Source: Octopus vulgaris (taxonomy: Eukaryota). From it: DNA of 64,000 nt. The position numbers and the translations under genes are program-made. The DNA lies in the NCBI GenBank assembly GCA_951406725.2, contig OX597819.1, positions 132,990,001-133,054,000 on the forward strand, read 5' to 3'. The notes under the pieces were generated by a model. That model worked only from the letters and a program-made list of their open reading frames with translations. It searched no databases and was not told the DNA's origin. Shown piece after piece: positions 6,201-60,480 of the stretch (position 1 is the stretch's first letter; the number at the start of each line of letters is the position of its first letter).

Positions 6201-6202
6201 CA

Positions 6203-6517
6203 TTAATTAATCAATATAGGGTAGCAAAAAATTCAATAGAAATTTTTTCGCCACGGGCGATTAAAAACGTCGAAACAATGCATTGTCTAAAGATGAATAG
6301 GGTAAATGTTTTTTAATTTTCCTTTAATTTCTGAATTACTACTACTTGGCGGTTTCAGTCCTGGCTGCTCTTTCTAGTGGGTCGAATGGCCTATTAAGGC
6401 CGTTCCTCAATTGTTGTTGAATTTATATATATAGTCTCTGACTATTTTCTCTTTCTCACTAGACCGCTGGTGGCGGAAAAATTTCTATTGAATTTTTTGC
6501 TACCCTATATTGATTAA

Positions 6518-6522
<5 letters not shown>
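6203..6522 (+). mobile_element. Short element with ~50-bp terminal inverted arms and the 3' half of a hammerhead, ending in (TA)n
   Basis: 6203-6253 is near reverse complement of 6470-6522; GAAAC-AAUGCAUU-GUC at about 6271-6286. Confidence 0.6.
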
Positions 6523-6593: not shown

Positions 6594-6638
<45 letters not shown>

Positions 6639-6647
<9 letters not shown>

Positions 6648-8670
6648 GATAAATGCGATACAATAGAATTAATTATAATCGCCGGTGTACCAGTACATGC
6701 CATATATTATACATATATCATTACATTCAAGGCGAAGAGTGCACTAGATACACAATAGCTGGATAAATTTAGTGAGATGAAAATTAAAAACTTTTACAAA
6801 CTTAACTTTTCTTATACTGCAGTTTCGCCAAATTCAGTAATAAAAATAGTATTTATTTACTCAGGCTGGCTCTTCAGTAAGATTCCTGTTAATAATGGGA
6901 AGACCATATCAATAGACCCATGTGCGTCTATCGAAATGCTCTTTCTAAACTATTCAAAACACTGCGCAGACTCAGAACAAACCCGACAAAATAGGGGATT
7001 GTGGTATATCGTCTAACGGTCAGAAATTTATCGAGAGAATATGTAAACAAAGATAAATGCGATACAATAGAATTAATTATAATCGCCGGTGTACCAGTAC
7101 ATGCCATATATTATACATATATCATTACATTCAAGGCGAAGAGTGCACTAGATACACAATAGCTGGATAAATTTAGTGAGATGAAAATTAAAAACTTTTA
7201 CAAACTTAACTTTTCTTATACTGCAGTTTCGCCAAATTCAGTAATAAAAATAGTATTTATTTACTCAGGCTGGCTCTTCAGTAAGATTCCTGTTAATAAT
7301 GGGAAGACCATATCAATAGACCCATGTGCGTCTATCGAAATGCTCTTTCTAAACTATTCAAAACACTGCGCAGACTCAGAACAAACCCGACAAAATAGGG
7401 GATTGTGGTATATCGTCTAACGGTCAGAAATTTATCGAGAGAATATGTAAACAAAGATAAATGCGATACAATAGAATTAATTATAATCGCCGGTGTACCA
7501 GTACATGCCATATATTATACATATATCATTACATTCAAGGCGAAGAGTGCACTAGATACACAATAGCTGGATAAATTTAGTGAGATGAAAATTAAAAACT
7601 TTTACAAACTTAACTTTTCTTATACTGCAGTTTCGCCAAATTCAGTAATAAAAATAGTATTTATTTACTCAGGCTGGCTCTTCAGTAAGATTCCTGTTAA
7701 TAATGGGAAGACCATATCAATAGACCCATGTGCGTCTATCGAAATGCTCTTTCTAAACTATTCAAAACACTGCGCAGACTCAGAACAAACCCGACAAAAT
7801 AGGGGATTGTGGTATATCGTCTAACGGTCAGAAATTTATCGAGAGAATATGTAAACAAAGATAAATGCGATACAATAGAATTAATTATAATCGCCGGTGT
7901 ACCAGTACATGCCATATATTATACATATATCATTACATTCAAGGCGAAGAGTGCACTAGATACACAATAGCTGGATAAATTTAGTGAGATGAAAATTAAA
8001 AACTTTTACAAACTTAACTTTTCTTATACTGCAGTTTCGCCAAATTCAGTAATAAAAATAGTATTTATTTACTCAGGCTGGCTCTTCAGTAAGATTCCTG
8101 TTAATAATGGGAAGACCATATCAATAGACCCATGTGCGTCTATCGAAATGCTCTTTCTAAACTATTCAAAACACTGCGCAGACTCAGAACAAACCCGACA
8201 AAATAGGGGATTGTGGTATATCGTCTAACGGTCAGAAATTTATCGAGAGAATATGTAAACAAAGATAAATGCGATACAATAGAATTAATTATAATCGCCG
8301 GTGTACCAGTACATGCCATATATTATACATATATCATTACATTCAAGGCGAAGAGTGCACTAGATACACAATAGCTGGATAAATTTAGTGAGATGAAAAT
8401 TAAAAACTTTTACAAACTTAACTTTTCTTATACTGCAGTTTCGCCAAATTCAGTAATAAAAATAGTATTTATTTACTCAGGCTGGCTCTTCAGTAAGATT
8501 CCTGTTAATAATGGGAAGACCATATCAATAGACCCATGTGCGTCTATCGAAATGCTCTTTCTAAACTATTCAAAACACTGCGCAGACTCAGAACAAACCC
8601 GACAAAATAGGGGATTGTGGTATATCGTCTAACGGTCAGAAATTTATCGAGAGAATATGTAAACAAAGAT
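6639..8670 (-). repeat. Head-to-tail array of five 404-bp units (plus 12 bp), retrozyme-like
   Basis: Unit starts at 6639, 7043, 7447, 7851, 8255, 8659; identical 79-aa ORFs at 404-bp spacing in the ORF track; one HHR per unit; left end abuts (TA)n. Confidence 0.95.
6810..6882 (-). ncRNA. Type I hammerhead ribozyme, canonical core (copies also at 7214-7286, 7618-7690, 8022-8094, 8426-8498)
   Basis: UCUUA-CUGAAGA-GCCAG...UUGGC-GAAAC-UGCA-GUA/UAAGA: helix I UCUUA:UAAGA, helix II GCCAG:UUGGC, palindromic helix III ACUGCAGU, GUA cleavage triplet. Confidence 0.88.
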
Positions 8671-9100
8671 GATTGATTGATTGATTGATTCTAGTTTCAG
8701 CTTATGAGCTGTGGCCATGCTGGGGCACCGCCATTTGGTGTTACTACTTGGTTTCACTTCATGAAGGCTTTCTAGCAACTGCTATTTGGTGCATGAGAGA
8801 GTTCGATGCAGCTGCCCTCATCTGCCCCTCCTGCCGTGAAGTTGGTTCATCTGGGACACCTGACAGGAAGAGATCCAGCTTCATTTTAAAGACATCTGTA
8901 TCCACCCCATGCAGGTCTCTCAGGTTCTTCGGGAGGATATTGAAGAGCTGTGGGCCTCGGAAGCCCAGGCTATCACAGAATCTTGTCCTACATCTTGATG
9001 GCAAGTTTGGAGTCCTAGGCACCACGCAGTGGCGCCCAGTTCTGGCATTTGCGTAGCTCTCGATGCCAAAGTTCAGGACACTTCCCTCCAGGATCTTCCA

Positions 9101-9104
<4 letters not shown>
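8668..9104 (-). mobile_element. 3' end of APE-type (CR1/L2-like) LINE with (AATC)n tail
   Basis: WKILEG..N..RGPQLFNILPKNLR..FKMKLDLFLSGVPDEP..AAASNSL is a typical ORF2 C-terminus; (GATT)n at 8668-8690 on the + strand. Confidence 0.8.
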
Positions 9105-9169
<65 letters not shown>

Positions 9170-9207
9170 ATATCTATATATATGGATATATATATATATA
9201 TATATAT

Positions 9208-9940
9208 TTAACAATTGAGGATAAAATCTTTAAAAGAAATTATCAGTAGTCAGCGTGAAAAACCTCGTAAGAGAAAAAATCCGTAAATTCTTCCTCTTTG
9301 AAAATATTCATTTATATTATATTGAGGGTTCTACTATTCGTAGATACCAACACGCTAAGAGGGACCAATGCGGTCAAAACTACTAAAAAAAACAAACTTT
9401 TACCGAATGCAAAAATGGATTAGTAGTACCCTCAATATAATATAAATGAATATTTTCAAAGAGGAAGAATTTACGGATTTTTTCTCTTACGAGGTTTTTC
9501 ACGCTGACTACTGATAATTTCTTTTAAAGATTTTATCCTCAACTGTTAATTTATATTTTTCACCGGAATAGTTCAATACTGAATTTTTATTCCGACTAGA
9601 CAATTTGTTACCGAAATGCATTGCGAATAAGCCCGCCATTTTCATAGATATGTAAAGATAAACATTCGTACATGCTACGACGAATTCTACGGTTGGCTAT
9701 CGAGCTTGTAATGTTATGTTTTTCTCTTATATTTCTTGAGTTTGTTGCACTGATGAACACGAAATGCATATTCTGCATTAAATGCGAAATCACATGTGAT
9801 ATGTAACTGAATTCTTTTTTAAAATGATGTGTTTTGAAGTTTTGCATTCGGTAAAATTTTGTTAATTTTTATTAGTTTTGACCGCATTGGTCCCTCTTAG
9901 CGTGTTGGTATCTACGAATAGTAGTACCCTCAATATAATA
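9208..9940 (+). mobile_element. HHR-bearing non-coding element: inverted 5' arm + 498-bp monomer with terminal redundancy, between (TA)n tracts
   Basis: TAGTAGTACCCTCAATATAAT at both 9421 and 9919; 9208-9413 is the reverse complement of about 9844-9940 joined to 9421-9548. Confidence 0.85.
9744..9807 (+). ncRNA. Type I hammerhead ribozyme
   Basis: GUUGCA-CUGAUGA-(acacga AAUGCA uauuc UGCAUU aaaugc)-GAAAU-CACAUGUG-AUA/UGUAAC; 6-bp helix I, palindromic helix III, first helix II pair is an A.C mismatch. Confidence 0.75.
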
Positions 9941-10029
9941 TATATATATATATATATGGATATATATTGTATTGTATTGTATTGTATGTATCTATCCGGA
10001 TATATATATATATGGATATATATATATAG

Positions 10030-11120
10030 AAACCGGAAGCCCCCCTGTACCAGTGGTTCTACAAAGAAATGAGAAATTAGAAAAACAGAAGAAAAAAGGA
10101 AGGACCGAAAACATAAATAAGGAGGGAAAGGGAAGAAAAGGCAAAACAACCAAAGCTGAAACCCCGACCCACCACACAAACAGCAGAGAACCCCATGGAG
10201 GATCCAATGCCACCCACTACACTTCAGGAAAGAAGAAATTTGGAAGGCACCGATGAACCTGTAAATTCTACTTGTGGGGCAAATGTCGGCATGGTGAGGA
10301 CGGCAAAAACTGCCGGTTCGCCCACCGACACCCCGCCAGAACTTCAGGGGACTCAAAGAGAAGAGCATTACTGAGGGTAGACAAAAGATGTCTCCCAGGA
10401 AAACTTTCAGAAAAGAAGCGTGCTCCTCAGATGTTCTGCGCAACGCAGCAGCTGAGCAAGAGTCTTTTTATGCATGACGCAAATAATTGTCCGGCAACTA
10501 TCCTGGCTACACCAAGCACAGAGAAGAAACCCTGCCCACCACTATGCAAGACCACCACAGTCAACAGACACGGGATTCCCCCCTAACGCCTGTACAGCCG
10601 TCACCCCAATACTTTTACTAAATATTGGGGGCCTGTTGCATCAAAATAGAAACAACATTTCTTTCCTGTGTGATCTTACTGCATGCAATCAAGCCCTATG
10701 CATAGCACTCGTGGAAACTCACCTCAGCCCTGATATAGAGGACGCAAAGGGACATATGCCAGACTATGCCATACTGCGAACAGACAGAAGGGAAAGGAGC
10801 CATGGTGGAGTTGATGTATACATTCGAGATGACCTTACACCCCAGGTCTTAATGACATACTCAAATTCGGTATGTGACACTTTAATTGTATACATAAGAC
10901 AACATAATATAGTCATATGCAATACATATTGCCCAGCAGATGCTCCAAATCACATAGGCACGTTTGAAGATTGCCTCACAAGAATTAAAGAAATCCTCAT
11001 GAATCTGGAACACCACGTGACCATATTTCTTATGGGTGATTTCAACTTCTCCAACGTCAAATAGCCCGAAGGTCTCATACTCTCAGGAATGAATCATTGC
11101 AAGCAAGTACAGGTGGAGTC
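10030..11120 (+). mobile_element. 5' part of APE-type LINE: ORF1 with CCCH zinc finger and start of ORF2 endonuclease (decayed)
   Basis: CKFYLWGKCRHGEDGKNCRFAH at about 10260-10325; LLNIGGL..IALVETHL..ILRTDRRERSHGGV..MGDFNF in ORF 10474-11064. Confidence 0.85.
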
Positions 11121-15704: not shown

Positions 15705-15748
<44 letters not shown>

Positions 15749-15802
15749 GTTTAAATATTTGTTGTGCAAGATTTTTTATGTGAAGTCGTGTGTTGAAACA
15801 GA

Positions 15803-16479
15803 TATTGTTATATTTCGGAATGGTCATATTGCCAGTTTAGCCAATAAAAACACACGCACTATATATTTGGTGTTATTTTGCTTCAGTGATATTTATTTTT
15901 TACATTAATCTTAATCTTATTTCGGCCAAAGTTCTTTCGTCACACTCCTGTGACCGCATCAGTGGTCCTTTGTTTTCTTCTCACTTACTTGTGTCTCTCC
16001 TTATTATTATTATTAGATTTATTATTATTATTACTAATATTGTTGTTATACATACATACAAGCATATGTAATGATAATAATGGGTGGATGTAAACACATG
16101 AACAAAATTAGAAAAAAAGCAACAACAACAAAAACAAAATACAAATTACAAGAATGTATATAACCAGAAGATACAAATATTACAGGCATCCCCCCACACA
16201 CACTAAATAAACATAGGCGCACATAGAGATATAAGCATGCGCAAATGAAGACATACAATAGAAATACAAAATGGCTGACGGTTAGTAAGGAGAGACACAA
16301 GTAAGTGAGAAGAAAACAAAGGACCACTGATGCGGTCACAGGAGTGTGACGAAAGAACTTTGGCCGAAATAAGATTAAGATTAATGTAAAAAATAAATAT
16401 CACTGAAGCAAAATAACACCAAATATATAGTGCGTGTGTTTTTATTGGCTAAACTGGCAATATGACCATTCCGAAATAT

Positions 16480-16485
<6 letters not shown>
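15803..16485. mobile_element. Element with ~200-bp inverted arms, each carrying an outward-facing HHR-like motif; right end in (TA)n
   Basis: 15803-16003 is the reverse complement of 16285-16485; ORFs 15886+ and 16203- share an identical translation. Confidence 0.85.
16321..16365 (+). ncRNA. Variant minimal hammerhead-like motif (mirror copy 15924-15968, minus strand)
   Basis: GGACCA-CUGAUGCG-GUCACA(GGAG)UGUGAC-GAAAG-AA-CUU/UGGCC; core deviates (A9 replaced by C). Confidence 0.55.
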
Positions 16486-16540
<55 letters not shown>

Positions 16541-16640: not shown

Positions 16641-16705
<65 letters not shown>

Positions 16706-16708
<3 letters not shown>

Positions 16709-17070
16709 GTGTAGGAAGAAACGAAGATTTAACAAAATTCCTTTTTATTATTTTCTACATATGTTTCAAAAGCTGCAAAGTCCCTAATTCGGATTGAATA
16801 AGGAGTCCATTTTGCAGCCTTCTCTTCAGGAAGGCTGCAAAATGGACTCCTTATTCAATCCGAATTAGGGACTTTGTAGCTTTTGAAACATATGTAGAAA
16901 ATAATAAAAAGGAATTTTGTTAAATCTTCGTTCAGCTCCATTTCTTCCTACACTAAATATATAAAACTTCAAATTTCCGCACTAAGGCACGGATTTTAGG
17001 CCCCATGGTCGTAACCTCAATCGTGCTTTTTCTGTTGTGATTTTTGCTACCCAGGTGTCGGTTATCATTA
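16706..17070 (+). mobile_element. Palindromic HHR element (same family as 55918-56431) next to (TA)n
   Basis: About 16701-16822 and 16830-16963 are inverted copies; tail TTTGCTACCCAGGTRTCGGTTA is shared with about 56369-56390. Confidence 0.85.
16753..16832 (-). ncRNA. Type I hammerhead ribozyme with long helix II
   Basis: UUC-CUGAAGA-GAAGGCUGCAAA...UUUGCAGCUUUU-GAAAC-AUAU-GUA/GAA. Confidence 0.75.
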
Positions 17071-17457: not shown

Positions 17458-17464
<7 letters not shown>

Positions 17465-18859
17465 TTAAAATTACTAAGTCTCTCTAAAAGAGATTACGGC
17501 AACGTTCCTGGAAATTAATAGTTATCGCCATACTAATATGGCATTCTTATAAAAATAAGAAAAAAGCTGTCCGCTTATTAGCTCCATGAGGCCATCGCCT
17601 TAAGTTAGCTATTCGATACACAAACTGTATCCATATAACCTTCGAACAAGGGAGGTCAGTCGCTCCACACTACTTGACCGACAGCTACAGACGCGTTTCA
17701 GGGTATTTGCCCTTTGTCAATGCAGCGTAGTCAGACCCAGTAGGTGTCGCTTCTGACTATCTCTGTTCGAAGGTTTTATTTACCTAGTTTCGGTGGAATA
17801 CATCCACTTGTTTTCAATAACAGAAATATTAAAATTACTAAGTCTCTCTAAAAGAGATTACGGCAGCGTTCCTGGAAATTAATAGTTTTTCGCCATACTA
17901 ATATGGCATTCTTATAAAAGTAAGAAAACAGCTGTCCGCTTATTAGCTCCATGAGGCCATCGCCTTAAGTTAGCTATTCGATACACAAACTGTATCCATA
18001 TAACCTTCGAACAAGGGAGGTCAGTCGCTCCACACTACTTGACCGACAGCTACAGACGCGTTTCAGGGTATTTGCCCTTTGTCAATGCAGCGTAGTCAGA
18101 CCCAGTAGGTGTCGCTTCTGACTATCTCTGTTCGAAGGTTTTATTCACCTAGTTTCGGTGGAATACATCCACTTGTTTTCAATAACAGAAATATTAAAAT
18201 TACTAAGTCTCTCTAAAAGAGATTACGGCAGCGTTCCTGGAAATTAATAGTTATCGCCATACTAATATGGCATTCTTATAAAAATAAGAAAAAAGCTGTC
18301 CGCTTATTAGCTCCATGAGGCCATCGCCTTCAGTTAGCTATTCGATACACAAACTGTATCCATATAACCTTCGAACAAGGGAGGTCAGTCGCTCCACACT
18401 ACTTGACCGACAGCTACAGACGCGTTTCAGGGTATTTGCCCTTTGTCAATGCAGCGTAGTCAGACCCAGTAGGTGCCGCTTCTGACTATCTCTGTTCGAA
18501 GATTTTATTTACCTAGTTTCGGTGGAATACATCCACTTGTTTTCAATAATAGAAATATTAAAATTACTAAGTTTCTCTAAAAGAGATTACGGCAGCGTTC
18601 CTGGAATTCGAACAGAGATAGTCAGAAGCGACACCTACTGGGTCTGACTACACTGCATTGACAAAGGGAAAATACCCTGAAACGCGTCTGTAGCTGTCGG
18701 TCAAGTAGTGTGGAGCGACTGACCTCCCTTGTTCGAAGGTTAAATGGATACAGTTTGTGTATCGAATAGCTAACTTAAGGCGATGGCCTCATGGAGCTAA
18801 TAAGCGGACAGCTTTTTTCTTATTTTTATAAGAATGCCATATTAGTATGGCGATAACTA

Positions 18860-18863
<4 letters not shown>
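17458..18863 (-). repeat. Array of three 364/365-bp units + partial unit + inverted arm, between (TA)n tracts; retrozyme/Penelope-like
   Basis: Units start at 17458, 17822, 18187, 18551; inversion at GAATTC (18604-18609); 18607-18863 is the reverse complement of part of the unit. Confidence 0.93.
17684..17726 (-). ncRNA. Type I minimal hammerhead with U3-A8 core (copies 18049-18091 and 18413-18455 minus; 18652-18694 plus)
   Basis: GCUGCA-UUGACAA-AGGG(CAAAUA)CCCU-GAAAC-GC-GUC/UGUAGC; 6-bp helix I, palindromic ACGCGU, GUC triplet. Confidence 0.78.
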
Positions 18864-18920
<57 letters not shown>

Positions 18921-18925
18921 ATATA

Positions 18926-19940
18926 TCAGGTCATTAAGAATGAAATCTCTGATTTTCTTATGTACTAATTTTGACAGTCATTAACTCTAATGTTTTATCC
19001 TGACAATTCTTTGTTCTACAACATTGAAGAATTACATCATCACTTTTCAAAATGCAATTCATGGTGTCTGATTATATTGTGATTTTCCTCTTATAAATCA
19101 ACTTTTGTGAACCCATGGATAGATCAAAAATTTGTGTTGTTTATGAATATGAGTTCCATTGTGGAACCAATGCATCCCAGACAGTTCGAAACATCAATGA
19201 GGTGTTTGGTGAAGATGTGGCAAATGAGTGCACTGTACATCGATGGTTTGAGAGGTTTGGGTCTGGTGACTATACTCTTGAAACTCAGCCCCATGGTAGA
19301 CCTGAGACCAAGGTGGATAATGATGAGCTAGAAACTGTAGTGGCAGGGGATACATCTCACACTACATGTGAGTTAGCAGCAAGGTTTGATGTTTCGATTC
19401 CAACTGTATTGGACCAACTGAAACACATCAGCAAAGTAAAGAAGCTGGACAAGATGGGCACCACATGAACTGAACGAACATCAAATGGCTCGTCGTCTTG
19501 AAACTTGCTGTTCTTTGCAGTCACGGCATAAAAGCGAACCATTTTTGTATCGTATTGTTACGTGTGATGAGAAGTGGCTTCTTTTCAACAGTAGCAAGCG
19601 TTCTGCACCTTAGCTGGATAGTGACGAAGTGCCAAAGCACAATCCAAAACAGAGTGTTCACCAATAAAAGCTAATGATGTGTGTTTGGTGGTCCAGCACT
19701 GGTGTCATCCACTACAGCTTCATGAGATCTGGTAAGTCAATTACAGCGAATGTATACATCAAACGATTGGATGAAATGATGAGTGAATTTGCAATGAAAC
19801 AACCAGGATTGGTCAATAGAGATAAGTCAATTCTCTTGCAAGACAATGCTCGACCACATGTTGCACAAAGAACGATACTCAAGTCACAGGAACTGAACTT
19901 GGAATTACTGTCATCCACCATATACACCAGACCTTACATC
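18926..19940 (+). mobile_element. Decayed mariner transposon (DD34D-type transposase pseudogene), 3'-truncated
   Basis: HTH N-terminus in ORF 19115-19468; frameshifted WAPHEL, IVTCDEKW, LQDNARPH, HPPYTPDL motifs; in-frame stops. Confidence 0.9.
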
Positions 19941-20750
19941 ATGTTTTCCAGGTATTAGAATGGTTGCTTAGCACTAGGTCCAAAATACTTTGGTTATTTC
20001 TGGTTGGTTCATGGACGAGTTGTGAGAGGAAAAAATTATCAATAAATTTAAAAAGTAACTCTACTGCTGCCTCGTCTGAACTTGAGGTGAACGTTCCTGG
20101 TCTAACAATATCAGTTGACCAGTCTACAGAGGGGAGGTTGAAGTCGTGCATCAATAGAATGTTTCCTTGGTTACTTTGCAGGAGGAAAGATTTGAGGCAC
20201 TCTTGGAAATAGTGTAAGGGAGCTTGTGTGTGTGTGTGTGTGTGTGGTGGGGGCTCTGTAGAGCCCAATCACAGACAGGTCTTTACTTTTGTTGTGTACA
20301 GAGACTGATTCGCAGTAGCCGTTGGAGAAAATGTCCTTGGCATCTGCGCTAAAAGAATCATAGAGGAAAATAACAACTGTGCCCTTTCTTTGGCCTGCCC
20401 GATCAGGGCGCATGGCAGCGAAGTGTCTGATTTTCAGTTCAACCTCTAAATGGCGGTCGTTTAGATGGGTCTCAGTTAGGACAAAGGAAGGCATTCGGTG
20501 TGTGTGCGTGCTGCAAGCCATCCCTCAGTGTAGGGTGTTTTCCATTTTTGAGCCTTGATGGTTGACATCTCGGATATTAAGGAGGAACTTCATTGCAGCA
20601 GCTTCGTTGTGTTTCTTAAGGATCCGCACATCATGTTTGTTGTTGTTGTTGTTGTTGATATTGTTGTTGCTACTCAGTGGCAGTAGCAAGGTTGTTTTTC
20701 GCTTTCGGTTGGTAGCAGAGGTTGAGCACTTCTCCGGGTTTCAATCGCCA
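19941..20750 (-). mobile_element. APE endonuclease region of a decayed LINE abutting the truncated mariner
   Basis: LTETHL..RPDRAGQRKG..GLYRAP..HDFNLPSVDW..QLVHEPTR..ILDLVLSN across ORFs 20171-20521 and 19939-20268. Confidence 0.85.
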
Positions 20751-30594: not shown

Positions 30595-31093
30595 TATAAA
30601 TTGTATTTTCTCCATTTTTGATGGGGATTTTTCCAGTTTGTTTTTTTCACTATGGCCTTCAAAATGATAGGGAGAGGCATCTTTTTATGAGCAGGACTCC
30701 ATATTTCATCATCCTCTTCTGTACTACCGATTATCTCCGCCACTACTTGGAACCACTTCTTGTGGCATCCATCCTTTATTCTTAACATTGTCCCTCTCCA
30801 GTCACATTTACCATTGATCACCTTTTTGTGTTCAGTTATATCTCCCTCTTCATCGAACCACTTCTTGTTGATTAACCTCTATATACCTCTAATCTCCTCC
30901 AACCCTATCACCATATATCTCTTATTTTCCCACACACTCTTGCAATCTGCTCACCCACCATCCAATCATCATCTGCCTTTCTCTCATCCTTCCTCTATCT
31001 ACTGTATTATTATTATTATTATTATTTGGCTGCTCTTTGCCCTTGATGTACTGTCAATCGTCACCTCTTCTCCTGTACTTTCCCTCCCACTCA

Positions 31094-31370
31094 TACAAGG
31101 TATTATCGGAAAGTTCCTGGCCACAAACAGTTGTGTGCCCAGTGAGAGCTAGCAGTGACCTTCATGAGATAGTGTGCAGAGTGACATTGTTGTTTACTTC
31201 ACAAGTTGCCATTTTTGTCAAGGGCAGGAAGTTGGAACAAAGAGCCAATGTGAAATTTTGTGTTAAATTTCGGAAGTCTACTACACAGACATTAAGCATG
31301 CTTCAGAAAGCTTATGGTAACGGGGCAATGAGTTATACGCAATGTTTTGAGTGGCATGGGCACTTCAATA
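31094..31370 (+). mobile_element. Mariner 5' fragment (TIR + transposase HTH)
   Basis: EQRANVKFCVKFRKSTTQTLSMLQKAYGNGAMSYTQCFEW; TIR-like TACAAGG..GAAAGTTCC. Confidence 0.75.
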
Positions 31371-32047
31371 AACCAAATTTGTGAACAGTTGCCGTTGCAT
31401 TTTTTATCCAACCAATTCTGCCTCGTTCAGTCTCATCAGTTTTGGCCGAAGAATACCTTTTCCTGGTGTCATTTCTTAATTCTTTCCCCTCCCAACTATG
31501 TGCTTTATAGAGACCACTGGTCGTGTTCTATGTGAATACGGTGTAATATGACATATGTAATATAGTTTAGCAAAACTAGAAAACGCTTAACTTCAATTAC
31601 TCAGACAACTGGTAGACAAAGCTCTCTATACTTTAATATGGACGATAAAGATGGGAAGGAATCCGGTAGAATGTGATGAAGAGGATTTGGTCTTTGTAGG
31701 ATTTCTCTGTGTAGCATATTCTACTCAGGTGTTAAGGGTAAAAGAGATTAAGATATAGAAACAAAGAGGATGTAGTGACACTAATTATGAACGACAGTAA
31801 TATGGTTGAAGGAGTATTCTTCAAAGGAGTATCCTTCGTATTAAACACAAATGTTGCAGAACTTATAAATATCAAGTAGTGAGATGAAATGAGATCAAAC
31901 TTTAATAACTTTAATCATCTATTTCATATTTATCGACCTATTTGAAGGAAGGCAGCTGGAAATCTCGTCCATTGTTTTTATTAAGATATTTGCATTACTT
32001 TCTCTTTATTTTGTTACTAAATATATTTGCAGTCCCGTAGTAAATAT

Positions 32048-47145: not shown

Positions 47146-47226
<81 letters not shown>

Positions 47227-47431
47227 GAAATATGTTACGAAAAGAAAATATCAAATACACGTGGAAATGTAAGGATAAAATATGAAAAATCAACGAAAAT
47301 GCATATTGCAAATAGAAAAAGGCTATTTAAGACAGGTAACGACAAATATATACATTTAGATTGACTGAGGTAGTAATACGAGTCATAAAAGTCATTATTA
47401 TGAGATGATAATAAAGTAAGAGAACAAAACG

Positions 47432-47533
47432 AAAAATATGGAACGCTTCACGACTTTGCGTGTCATCCTTGCGCAGGGGCCATGCTAAACCTCTCTGGAT
47501 CGTTCCAATTTTAGTATATGTACTGCCGAAGCG
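47432..47533 (-). pseudogene. U6: U6 snRNA copy (first ~5 nt missing, core substitutions)
   Basis: CGCTTCGGCAGTACATATACTAAAATTGGAACGATCCAGAGAGGTTTAGCATGGCCCCTGCGCAAGGATGACACGCAAAGTCGTGAAGCGTTCCATATTTTT matches metazoan U6; upstream promoter region is replaced by the inverted arm. Confidence 0.93.
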
Positions 47534-47573
47534 CAAGGATGACACGCAAAGTCGTGAAGCGTTCCATATTTTT
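47531..47573 (+). pseudogene. U6: Inverted duplicate of the U6 3' part
   Basis: GCGCAAGGATGACACGCAAAGTCGTGAAGCGTTCCATATTTTT. Confidence 0.9.
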
Positions 47574-47849
47574 CGTTTTGTTCTCTTACTTTATTATCAT
47601 CTCATAATAATGACTTTTATGACTCGTATTACTACCTCAGTCAATCTAAATGTATATATTTGTCGTTACCTGTCTTAAATAGCCTTTTTCTATTTGCAAT
47701 ATGCATTTTCGTTGATTTTTCATATTTTACCCCTATATATATATATATATAACGGGAAGCTTTATGAAAATAAACAGAAGACGAAGGCAGGTGGAAAACA
47801 AACGAACAATTGTATTAGTATGGCGCTCAGGAAATATAAATAAAACAAG

Positions 47850-47887
47850 TCTTTAACGTTTCGAGCCTACGCTCTTCAACAGAAAGA
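47850..47887 (-). ncRNA. Minimal Penelope-type hammerhead-like motif (A6 replaced by U) in a short element at about 47751-47945
   Basis: UCUUU-CUGUUGA-A-GAGC(GUAG)GCUC-GAAACGUU/AAAGA; 5-bp helix I, palindromic AACGUU. Confidence 0.55.
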
Positions 47888-47959
47888 TACACAGAGAGAG
47901 AAAAACACAGAAAGAAGGAGAGAAAAAAAATGCGTGCAGTAGCTAAATATACAGATAAA

Positions 47960-48567
47960 GGGTGAAATATAATTAATTTAATAAAATCAACAAATTTCAC
48001 CAAGTAGTATTTCGGTATGGAAAAGGACCATATTCGGTAAAAGTTTGTATAATTATAACAAAGAGGGTCTTTGCAACGAGTTGCTAGACCACAAACCGAA
48101 AGTATTAGAAATAGCAGCCAGAGGACTGTTATTTCTTTTACTACAAAAATATGTCTCCACAGCCAACAGTATTTGTAACTCATTATGTGGCAAAAACAGA
48201 AGAAAAATAATTCTGGAGGACAATACGAATTCACTTGTCTATATAAATGTGGATATGCTGATTGGCTTCTGTATGCCCCGATTTCGCCTGGTCGGAAATA
48301 TGGAGGGTAAGATTTCCTAGCATTTCTAGATTTATTTACCGGAATATTATGTTGATAAAGGAAATGAATCTTTGATTATAATCCAGAAACGTACGTGGAC
48401 TGTTTGATTTCGTTATTTTTCTTCTTTTTTTGCCACATAATGAGTTACAAATACTGTTGTCTGTGGAGACATATTTTTGTAGTAAAAGAAATAACAGTCC
48501 TCTGGCTGCTATTTCTAATACTTTCGGTATGTGGTCTAGCAACCTGTTGCAAAGACCCTCTTTGTTA

Positions 48568-48573
<6 letters not shown>
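47960..48573. mobile_element. Element with ~155-bp inverted arms ending in (TA)n
   Basis: 48050-48205 versus 48418-48573 with few mismatches; mirrored ORF translations. Confidence 0.85.
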
Positions 48574-48633
<60 letters not shown>

Positions 48634-55821: not shown

Positions 55822-56533
<712 letters not shown>

Positions 56534-57862: not shown

Positions 57863-59916
57863 TAGTCTTATTTTTATAGCGTGCTTTCACTTCACTACCG
57901 AGCGCAGTTCTGCGTACCTTAGGTATGTGCTATGATTTGTTGTGATGCTCTGATGGTTATTGTATGGAAAGTGTTCTGCATAAGATGTGTGCAGTGCCTA
58001 GTAGTGCAATTTTCTGTATGTTATATCTGTTTGTAAGTCCTGGTGTTTTTGTTATGTATTTGTCTGAATATTTTTTATCATGCCTAATGCACCTACTATG
58101 ATAGGAATTGTTTCTGTTTTTAGATTCCACATTCTGGTTACCTCTATTTCCAGGTCTTTGTATTTTGAGAGTTTCTCCATTTCTTTTAGAGACACGTTGT
58201 CATCTGCCGGTATTGATACATCAATTAGAAAGCATTTTTTTCTTCATGATCTCTGACAACTATATCTGGTCTGTTGGCCTTAATTTCTCTATCTGTGTGT
58301 ATCGGCATATCCCAGAGTATGGTTGCTTTCTCGTTTTCTGTGACCTTTTCTGGTGTGTGCCTATACCATCTTTTTTCTGTTGTTATTCCATAATGTTGGC
58401 ATAGCTTCCAGTGTATGTAGGTTCCAACTCTGTCATGTCTGTGAATATATTCCTTCTTAGCCAGGACTGGGCAGCCAGAGATAATATGATTTATTGTTTC
58501 TTGTCCATCTCCACATATTCTGCAGTTACTTGTTATATTTCTTTTCATTACATGTTTTTGGTAATTTCTGGTGGGGAGGCTTTGGTTTTGTGCTGCAATT
58601 AAAAATCCCTCTGTCTCTGCTTTGAGTCCTGAGCTTCTCAACCATTGCTGGGATTTTTCCTTGTCTATTTCTTTTGCGTTTAGTTTAGTCCAGTATTTAC
58701 CATGAAGGGGCTTTTCTTGCCATCGTTTTATCATGGTTCGTTGCTGTTCTGTTTTTAGTTTGGATTTCATTTGTTTTATAGCTTTTGTTGTTTCTTCTTC
58801 TTCTTCTTCTTCTTCTTCTTCTTCTTCTTCTTCTTCTTCTTCTTCTTCTTCTTCTTCTTCTTCTTCTTCTTCTTCTTCTTCTTCTTCTTCTTCTTCTTCA
58901 TATTTATTAGGTGGTATGATTTCTTGTTTGTATTTGTCAGCTTCCTTAAATACTGAGAACAGTTTTTTGTCTTGCTCGTGTTTTGCCGCTATTTGTATCA
59001 GTTTTCCTTCCTTCTGAAGTAGATATTTTTGCAGTCCTATGGTGGTTATTTTATAGTAGTTTTCCAGCTGTATAAGGCCTCTACCACCTTCTATACGTTG
59101 TATATATAGTCTTTCAATGTCAGATTTTGGGTGGTGCATCCTAGATCCTGTCATTATTTTTCTTATTTTCCTATGTATTTTGGTCAGTTCATTTAGTGTC
59201 CAGTTAAGGATATTGTAGCTGTAACTTATAACTGGGACAGCTAAAGTGTTAATAACTATTATCTTGTTTTTAGCATTGAGCTCTGTTTTTAGTATTGATC
59301 TAACTCGTCTATAATATTCTTTTTTTATGTTCTCTTTCATTTGTGTGTGTTGTGTCTTATCTAGTTCATGGATTCCTAAGTATTTGTAAGTTTGGCTTTG
59401 GTCTAATTCTTTTATTTCATTGGTTTTATCTAGTGTGATGTTGTTACTCTTAACTAGTTTTCCTCTTTTCATGGTTACTTTGGCACATTTTTCTAATCCA
59501 AATTTCATATCTATTTCTTTGGTAAATCCATGAACTGTCTTTAGTGGCTGATCGTTTTGCCGTAACATTTATATCCGCATCCAGTTCTATTTAGCATATC
59601 AGATAGAGGTGACAGTGCCAAGCAGAAAAGGAGTGGAGAGAGCGTGTCTCCCTGGAATATTCTAATGGGGATGGCTTTGGTTTATCATGAGTTCCTCTTT
59701 TGTTTGGAGCTGTAGCACGGTTTGCCATTTATTCATAGAGTGCCCTATGAATTTTATAAGGGTTGGTGCTACTTTGTTAATGGCTAGTGTTTCGAGGATA
59801 CATATGTGGGGGATGCTATCAAACGCTTTTGTGTAGTCGATCCAGGCCATACTGAGGCCTTTCTTCTTTCTCTGGCTGTCTTCAGTTATGGCTTTATTAA
59901 TCATTAGTTGATCTTG
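57860..59916 (-). mobile_element. 5'-truncated R4/Dong-like LINE (RT, CCHC knuckle, RLE) inside a (TAA)n tract
   Basis: AWIDYTKAFDSI, IFQGDTLSPLLF, YKYLGI, HHPKSDIERLY, CRICG..ETINHIISGC, RHD, NRPDIVV; frameshifts; TAA repeats on both sides. Confidence 0.95.
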
Positions 59917-59979
<63 letters not shown>

Positions 59980-60480
59980 GAGTGAGAGAGTAGTGCATGC
60001 CATCAAAGTGACACGGGTAAAATATACGAAACCCAGTATACCCATCATGACTACCCGTCTGATAAGGGTACACCAAGTACATGCATCACAACCATATGTG
60101 CGCGACATGGTGATCTCATATCAACATAAACAGCGCATGACCTTGCAGGTGGGGCCTAGTTAGAATTTTCTCCTGGTCGAGTAACCCATCCCGCACAAAA
60201 GGTCCCTGAATAAGGATTGTTTAAGGATGTTGAACGAATCATCCATGTTTCCAGAGGTGAATTAACCAACCTCTAAGCATTCCTTTCAACACACGGCTAT
60301 GATGTTCCCCAACTACTTCTGCTCATGATCAGAGATGCACATATCGTCAGCCACTAAGGGACATGCTCAACTGGTTATGGTCAAACAACTGACAAGCAAC
60401 TCTGCGGTATTGAGCAGAATATTTGCTGTAGCCCATCTTTTATAGCAAGACAAAACAATGTACATGATAACACTTCCAAT
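59980..60480 (-). mobile_element. Probable non-coding repeat whose minus-strand 3' end runs into (TAA)n
   Basis: More GC-rich block starting abruptly at the TAA tract; no protein motif seen. Confidence 0.4.

Follow-up and report, generated by a model that had tools for sequence, protein, structure and literature searches.

A 498-nt repeat with a predicted hammerhead ribozyme in Octopus vulgaris: likely a non-LTR retrozyme with an insertion footprint of Penelope-like type

Our analysis of a 64,000-nt stretch of Octopus vulgaris DNA (contig OX597819.1, positions 132,990,001 to 133,054,000; here called the window) indicates that the element at 9208-9942 is a 498-nt non-coding repeat with a predicted hammerhead, probably a non-LTR retrozyme that the endonuclease and reverse transcriptase (RT) of a Penelope-like element (PLE) pasted into a (TA)n tract. 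Such a retrozyme would most likely be a non-autonomous passenger of PLEs. From left to right, the locus (9102-10030) comprises a TA-rich tract, an inverted arm, a filler, a 498-nt unit, a short redundancy and a second TA-rich tract:

9102..9207, no strand: left (TA)n-rich microsatellite flank (TRF 9105-9207), likely half of the integration target
9208..9414, minus strand: inverted 5'-truncated arm of 207 nt, its 3' end pointing outward at the left TA run
9415..9420, no strand: 6-nt filler at the 5'-to-5' centre junction
9421..9918, plus strand: one full 498-nt unit (repeat spacing also 498)
9744..9807, plus strand: predicted type I hammerhead ribozyme (pattern scan and shuffles; family alleles at 9757/9760)
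9919..9942, plus strand: terminal redundancy of 21-24 nt, the start of a second unit (exact repeat 9421/9919)
9938..10030, no strand: right (TA)n-rich microsatellite flank

Read on the minus strand, the arm matches 9840-9918 and then 9421-9549 over all of its 207 nt, apart from 5 mismatches and 1 gap, and since BLAST of the arm pieces gave E-values of 1e-42 or better, this match is not due to chance. A preliminary description of the locus had read the arm in just this way, from the end of the monomer into its beginning, and had noted that this continuity is absent from the forward copy; both points are borne out, as the local alignment score of the arm is 388 against the self-joined unit versus 253 against the forward copy, in which only 129 of the 207 arm bases are contiguous. 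The forward part had been described, again correctly, as one 498-nt monomer with about 21 nt of redundancy, the spacing being 498 and the exact redundancy 24 nt, whose final letters also form the beginning of the (TA)n run. The bounds given for the arm hold in layout but not to the base: it ends at 9414 rather than 9413, its match starts at 9840 rather than 9844, and 6 filler bases occupy 9415-9420. We found no convincing source for this filler within the 498-nt unit, and no palindrome at the centre of the element, where only the filler is present.

Both outer ends lie within 10 nt of TA runs, the AT-rich/(TA)n setting of PLE insertions, and an inverted 5'-truncated copy adjoins the 5' end of the forward copy head-to-head, as is also characteristic of them. 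A CCTCAA-like motif precedes both 3' ends by a few AT-rich bases, the two ends being offset by ~105-115 nt, with the right one at unit positions 138-141 counted from the predicted ribozyme cut. No target-site duplication is readable inside the microsatellite. Relative to the family majority letters, arm and forward copy carry 3 private changes each over 208 nt, as would be predicted for copies produced simultaneously, and because these changes are symmetric, neither side has arisen recently from the other by DNA copying. BLAST detected no second copy of the unit elsewhere in the window, and local alignment to the eight other element families gave no convincing homology (scores of 22-34, shuffle maxima of 26-36), the highest score being 34 for 47752-48575 against a shuffle maximum of 32. 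Exact-pattern scans of metagenome contigs returned 0 matches.

The predicted ribozyme, which the preliminary description had overlooked, consists of a 6-bp helix I (9744-9749/9802-9807), the core CUGAUGA at 9750, GAAA at 9786, and a 4-bp helix III closed by a 4-nt loop, which lies within a perfect 12-nt palindrome (9789-9800); cleavage is predicted, from this sequence pattern, to occur after A9801. At equal stem lengths, none of 5000 dinucleotide shuffles matched the pattern, and 5 and 11 of 5000 did so under looser settings. The Rfam hammerhead models gave no match at the locus at E<=1 or at gathering score; sub-threshold Rfam matches to hairpins and microsatellites there were dismissed as chance. 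A private change at 9760 weakens the base of helix II in this copy, a position at which essentially all depth in four sequencing runs carries the other letter. The catalytic fold has a constrained energy of -7.5 kcal/mol versus -9.6 kcal/mol unconstrained, placing it 2.1 kcal/mol above the minimum. The unit as a whole folds more stably than its shuffles, both as a linear molecule (z of -3.2, 0 of 100 shuffles equal or better) and as a circular one (z of -2.8, 0 of 60). A coding role was considered and ruled out, as the unit lacks a long ORF, with at most 86 aa uninterrupted by stops, and has no Pfam match. Two complete tandem hammerheads were not seen at this locus. The motif at 9744-9807 therefore makes a non-LTR retrozyme the most likely assignment, and the type I hammerhead pattern, small non-coding unit, head-to-tail repeats and high copy number are all features by which such retrozymes are recognized.

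Besides the redundant end at this locus, the evidence for the last two of these features comes from read-derived contigs. The stretch, or part of it, is contained in 20 of the 24 sequencing runs listed, from 10 studies, and at least half of its words in 17. In the four runs compared over 9414-9942, 1211, 781, 37 and 1 contigs map, the first two counts coming from DNA-type runs and revealing a high-copy family. Run X4 holds joints in which 9903 leads back to 9421 and 9942 to 9458, and the unit is therefore head-to-tail continuous in other copies. The centre junction 9414/9841 is present in a contig of run X5 at depth 36 and is thus no assembly artefact; X5 is possibly the window's own source. 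Centre junctions vary among copies, with 9414/9841 in X5, 9577/9816 in X4 (polarity not given) and, from a loose end matched by eye, ~9658/9848 in X2. Near 9556, ten X5 contigs break off into a TA run, in agreement with the outer end of the arm, so that a recurrent family end near 9549-9556 corresponds to the left arm's 3' end; for the right end (138-141), no recurrence was seen among 15 of the 139 loose ends listed. At the RNA level, a single contig (9633-9882, depth 2.2) runs across the uncut ribozyme site in X20, the only run recorded as RNA (X2 is RNA by guess), and contigs as such cannot reveal circles. Differences in contig depth along the unit and between runs were left out, since depth equals neither copy number nor expression. 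We also considered that copying might have proceeded to the 5' end of cleaved RNA, as three centre junctions each have an end located 15-47 nt past the cut (9816, 9840 and ~9848), and set this reading aside given the three cases, the missing polarity of 9577/9816 and sibling arms that cross ribozyme sites.

Counting from the predicted cut changes how the geometry is to be understood. The arm then spans unit positions 39-246, and the forward part 118-498 followed by 1-117, a full unit, and on to 141 with the redundancy, the two overlapping on the template by 128 nt. The joint between 9918 and 9421 is accordingly the 5' truncation point of the forward copy and not a natural monomer junction. The preliminary description had taken the arm to cross the end-to-start junction of the monomer as the footprint of a circle; at 39-246, however, it never reaches the would-be ligation site, and since it lies within one linear cleaved monomer, it is by itself no evidence for a circle. 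The forward copy, by contrast, crosses the ribozyme site and exceeds one unit, and hence needs a circular or uncut tandem template. The proposed circular or tandem RNA template can thus be retained on the strength of the forward copy, the hammerhead motif, which is typical of elements with circular RNA, and the go-back joints in X4, but not of the arm. Two separately primed cDNAs, as had also been suggested, best explain the layout, because with only 129 of the 207 arm bases contiguous in the forward copy a simple fold-back fails. Their priming at freely permuted positions is not supported: the left 3' end recurs in other copies, as the X5 contigs demonstrate, the ends are therefore not freely permuted, and the 3' ends look like preferred internal start sites instead of random permutations. 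The earlier conclusion is half right, for the wrong reason.

Starting from what was directly observed (the layout, the motif, the high-copy family, its head-to-tail continuity and the variable centre junctions), we infer the following course of events. A PLE protein would nick both strands of the TA tract, and from each nick a separate cDNA would be primed within the element RNA, at AT-rich sites located ~246-253 from the ribozyme cut for the left arm and ~138-141 for the right. The right cDNA would pass the ribozyme site and cover the full unit plus ~21 nt, the left cDNA would halt after 207 nt, still 38 nt away from the cut site, and the truncated ends would be joined head-to-head with the 6-nt filler. 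In vitro, a PLE cleaved and extended both target strands and initiated internally at two sites, with unprocessed RNA as its main substrate (Frangieh et al., PMC11167929), and a linear multimer is therefore at least as likely a template as a circle; for the right cDNA we regard circular monomer and uncut tandem transcript as almost evenly matched, leaning slightly toward the latter. It is accordingly possible, though on balance doubtful, that the locus records, as a genomic fossil, how a PLE enzyme started from the two nicked target strands to copy a circular ribozyme RNA; one cDNA would then be one turn of the 498-nt circle plus 21 nt, and the other would have begun ~105 nt further on. Classic twin priming on a single RNA does not fit, because the 5' end of the forward copy (118) does not abut the 3' end of the arm (246). 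Weighing against this course of events is the offset between the 3' ends, which at ~105-115 nt is far above the 30-40 nt of the PLE tail. The element contains no ORF with RT and GIY-YIG endonuclease, as an autonomous PLE would, and no GIY-YIG or PLE-type RT match was obtained anywhere in the window among 114 of its 118 ORFs (4 identical tandem copies were omitted).

The locus is one of several of its kind. A scan for inverted repeats yielded 13 rows representing 10 elements, of which 9 were kept after one microsatellite-only row had been dropped. In 8 of these 9, a TA run lies no more than 10 nt from an outer end, compared with 4.7% of bases, and head-to-head arms with offset 3' ends in (TA)n recur in seven window elements besides the one under study. 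These elements, together with one tandem array that has no arm and the snRNA copy inside one element, are:

6202-6522, 15747-16487 and 48048-48575, polarity not fixed: three further inverted-arm elements ending at TA runs
6635-8670, hammerhead pattern on the minus strand: five identical 404-nt units plus 16 nt, with the 3' end at a TA run
16704-17064 and 55918-56431: a related pair, each bearing a hammerhead and an inverted arm; the short arms of both stop at homologous internal positions
17458-18864, sense on the minus strand: tandem of three 364-nt units and a further 57 nt, accompanied by an inverted arm of 258 nt and bounded on either side by TA runs
47432-47534, minus strand: U6 snRNA copy (Rfam, 97 bits), the sole gathering-score Rfam match in the window

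The polarity with 3' ends pointing outward could be fixed for five elements, by ribozyme-type cores (9208-9942, 17458-18864 and 55918-56431), by homology (16704-17064) and by U6 (47223-47738). In 7 of the 8 elements tested, 94-100% of the short arm is contained in the opposite side, as opposed to 129 of 207 in the element at 9208-9940; for the siblings at 6202, 15802 and 48048 the arm is defined by the match itself, and their containment is partly circular logic. Sibling 3' ends are offset by ~44-56 nt and ~146 nt, the latter value belonging to 55918-56431, where the short arm ends ~146 nt before the other end, while in 16704-17064 this distance is at least ~106 nt. The element at 55918-56431 has an additional palindrome with 46-bp arms at its centre (56026-56133). 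In 17458-18864, the core is hammerhead-like but non-canonical and the units differ at 5-9 positions. The 5' end of its tandem part (3.2 x 364 nt, 17458-18606), at 18606, equals 17514 modulo 364, which is the exact map position of the outer end of its arm, a twin-priming-like adjacency on a repeated template. The array at 6635-8670 has a type I hammerhead pattern in each unit and no inverted arm; it looks like a very young retrozyme insertion, possibly copied by rolling circle. For 6202-6522, 15747-16487 and 48048-48575, hammerhead-like cores were noted by eye only, and 15747-16487 has a one-sided 55-nt extension.

The U6-bearing element limits what the architecture can be taken to mean. At 47223-47738, U6 and ~210 nt of its 3' flank stand head-to-head with a 5'-truncated second copy between two TA runs; the offset between the 3' ends is 44-50 nt, and the template is linear and unpermuted. 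As the form is head-to-head here too, a circle does not follow from this architecture alone. This element is likely a U6 read-through transcript, or a U6-headed element, moved by the same machinery, and a four-term literature search returned no papers on it.

The strongest rival to two separately primed cDNAs is a single priming event followed by fold-back, which we nevertheless consider unlikely. In this scenario, the template would still be circular or tandem, but only one cDNA of more than one unit would be made, which snapped back and copied itself into the arm; both ends would first have stood at ~246, and a later right-end deletion would have removed ~105 nt between the unit's TATAATATA and the TA tract. 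Self-priming has indeed been proposed for head-to-head PLE inversions by Arkhipova et al. (PMC3846280), and it agrees with the containment of the arm in 7 of 8 elements. In addition, the right end lies in TA-run-like letters, and its recurrence was not seen among the 15 loose ends mentioned above. The scenario requires, however, a second event and a 419-nt loop, the centre shows filler and no palindrome, and 55918-56431 and 16704-17064 show that long offsets arise without special pleading.

We regard as improbable that two separately primed cDNAs are mimicked here by a DNA-level rearrangement of a former tandem array, in which inverted duplication and deletion during repair would have sufficed with no special RNA step. 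The window does contain other hammerhead tandem arrays (5 x 404 nt at 6635-8670 and 3.2 x 364 nt at 17458-18606), and local amplification by unequal crossover is suggested in bioRxiv 10.64898/2026.07.22.740005. Yet the element meets the TA runs on both sides with a 3' end, of which the left is also found in other copies, the same architecture occurs in unrelated families, U6 included, and the symmetry of the private changes argues against either side being a recent copy of the other. Very improbably, the 498 nt are only the pseudo-LTR of a truncated, longer autonomous PLE; according to PMC8557442, PLE pseudo-LTRs bear type I hammerheads and give inverted 5'-truncated insertions. Both in the arm and in further copies, however, the unit's end continues into its start, and the unit has neither an ORF nor a Pfam match. 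Twin priming is known to produce 5' inversions, and LINE remnants flank the site, including an APE-type endonuclease fragment at 10456-11061 (below the Pfam cut-off), but twin priming by LINE (non-LTR) machinery on a tandem transcript is extremely improbable, as the element has no poly(A) or simple-repeat 3' tail of its own, its arms do not abut on the template but share 128 nt of it, and the internal 3' ends and the hammerhead point to PLEs.

In L1 twin-priming 5' inversions, two priming events give 5'-to-5' joined cDNAs that derive from neighbouring stretches of a single RNA and terminate in poly(A). The present element resembles them in its two priming events and 5'-to-5' joined cDNAs, and differs in that the cDNAs overlap by 128 nt and both start internally. 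The hallmarks given for PLEs by Craig et al. (PMC8557442) are an adjoining inverted 5'-truncated copy, a 30-40 bp tail and (TA)n targets. With the hammerhead-bearing PLEs that possess the endonuclease (EN+; Penelope/Poseidon, Neptune, Nematis and Hydra; PMC8557442, PMC11167929 and PMC3846280), the element shares a partial tandem with an adjoining inverted 5'-truncated copy, two offset 3' ends, an AT-rich/(TA)n target and a hammerhead motif; in contrast to them, it has no RT/GIY-YIG ORF, an offset of ~105-115 instead of 30-40, and an arm that is not contained in the other side. Naiads have the TA target in common but no canonical hammerheads. Chlamys non-autonomous PLEs such as MRC1 (PMC8557442) are likewise PLE passengers with head-to-tail insertions, but are green algal and generally without a canonical hammerhead, and their sequence link to autonomous partners has been shown.

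Non-LTR retrozymes were defined, their circular RNAs shown and PLEs named as candidate mobilizers by Cervera and de la Pena (2020, PMC7229834), an account repeated in a review (PMC7761336). In Li et al. (2026, bioRxiv 10.64898/2026.07.22.740005), retrozymes are tied to PLE pseudo-LTRs by distribution and phylogeny, and 8 of 9 predicted Xenopus elements did not cleave. Our element is like metazoan non-LTR retrozymes in its non-coding, low-GC unit with one type I hammerhead each, head-to-tail arrangement, high copy number and structured RNA. It differs from them in size, with 498 nt versus 170-400 nt (PMC7229834), which is nonetheless inside the range of 51-972 bp in bioRxiv 10.64898/2026.07.22.740005, and in that this copy, set in (TA)n, amounts to roughly one unit and an inverted arm, with a hammerhead predicted from sequence. 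The word "inverted" does not occur in the main text of PMC7229834 and, within the accessible portion of bioRxiv 10.64898/2026.07.22.740005, occurs in a reference title only. The literature searched, consisting of the main texts of mostly freely available articles, some of them in part, contained no description of retrozymes with PLE-type inverted arms. The element represents a new family, although perhaps one that repeat databases already list, within an established class, and the PLE footprint of its insertion is likewise known.

While its parts are already known, in the form of retrozymes and PLE inversions, the value of this locus is that of a diagnostic case for two open questions of mechanism, namely, the origin of head-to-head PLE inversions and whether PLEs truly mobilize hammerhead retrozymes. 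Such mobilization has so far rested on co-occurrence and pseudo-LTR similarity, and a retrozyme with a PLE integration footprint constitutes mechanistic evidence of a different kind. Short cyclic units make the geometry readable, and an arm that cannot be templated by the opposite side separates two-cDNA models from fold-back. With eight such insertions in 64 kb, a genome this rich would yield thousands of natural test cases. If the template was indeed a circle, retrozyme circles would be real intermediates of PLE retrotransposition, PLE inversions would stem from two independent cDNAs and not from fold-back, and 17458-18864, with three 364-nt turns ending exactly where the arm starts, would represent the same process on one molecule.

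The sequences next to the TA tracts, at 8671-9101 and 10031-11115, resemble LINE remnants pointing away from the TA tract. The former contains a C-terminal fragment on the minus strand, recognized by eye and without a Pfam match, the latter CCCH-finger and APE-endonuclease fragments on the plus strand (Pfam, below the cut-off); they are possibly one 5'-inverted LINE or two insertions. Further away, ordinary repeat content occupies 19097-19955, 30893-31381 and 58228-60120, in the form of decayed fragments of mariner-type transposases and a remnant of a non-LTR RT (zf-RVT).
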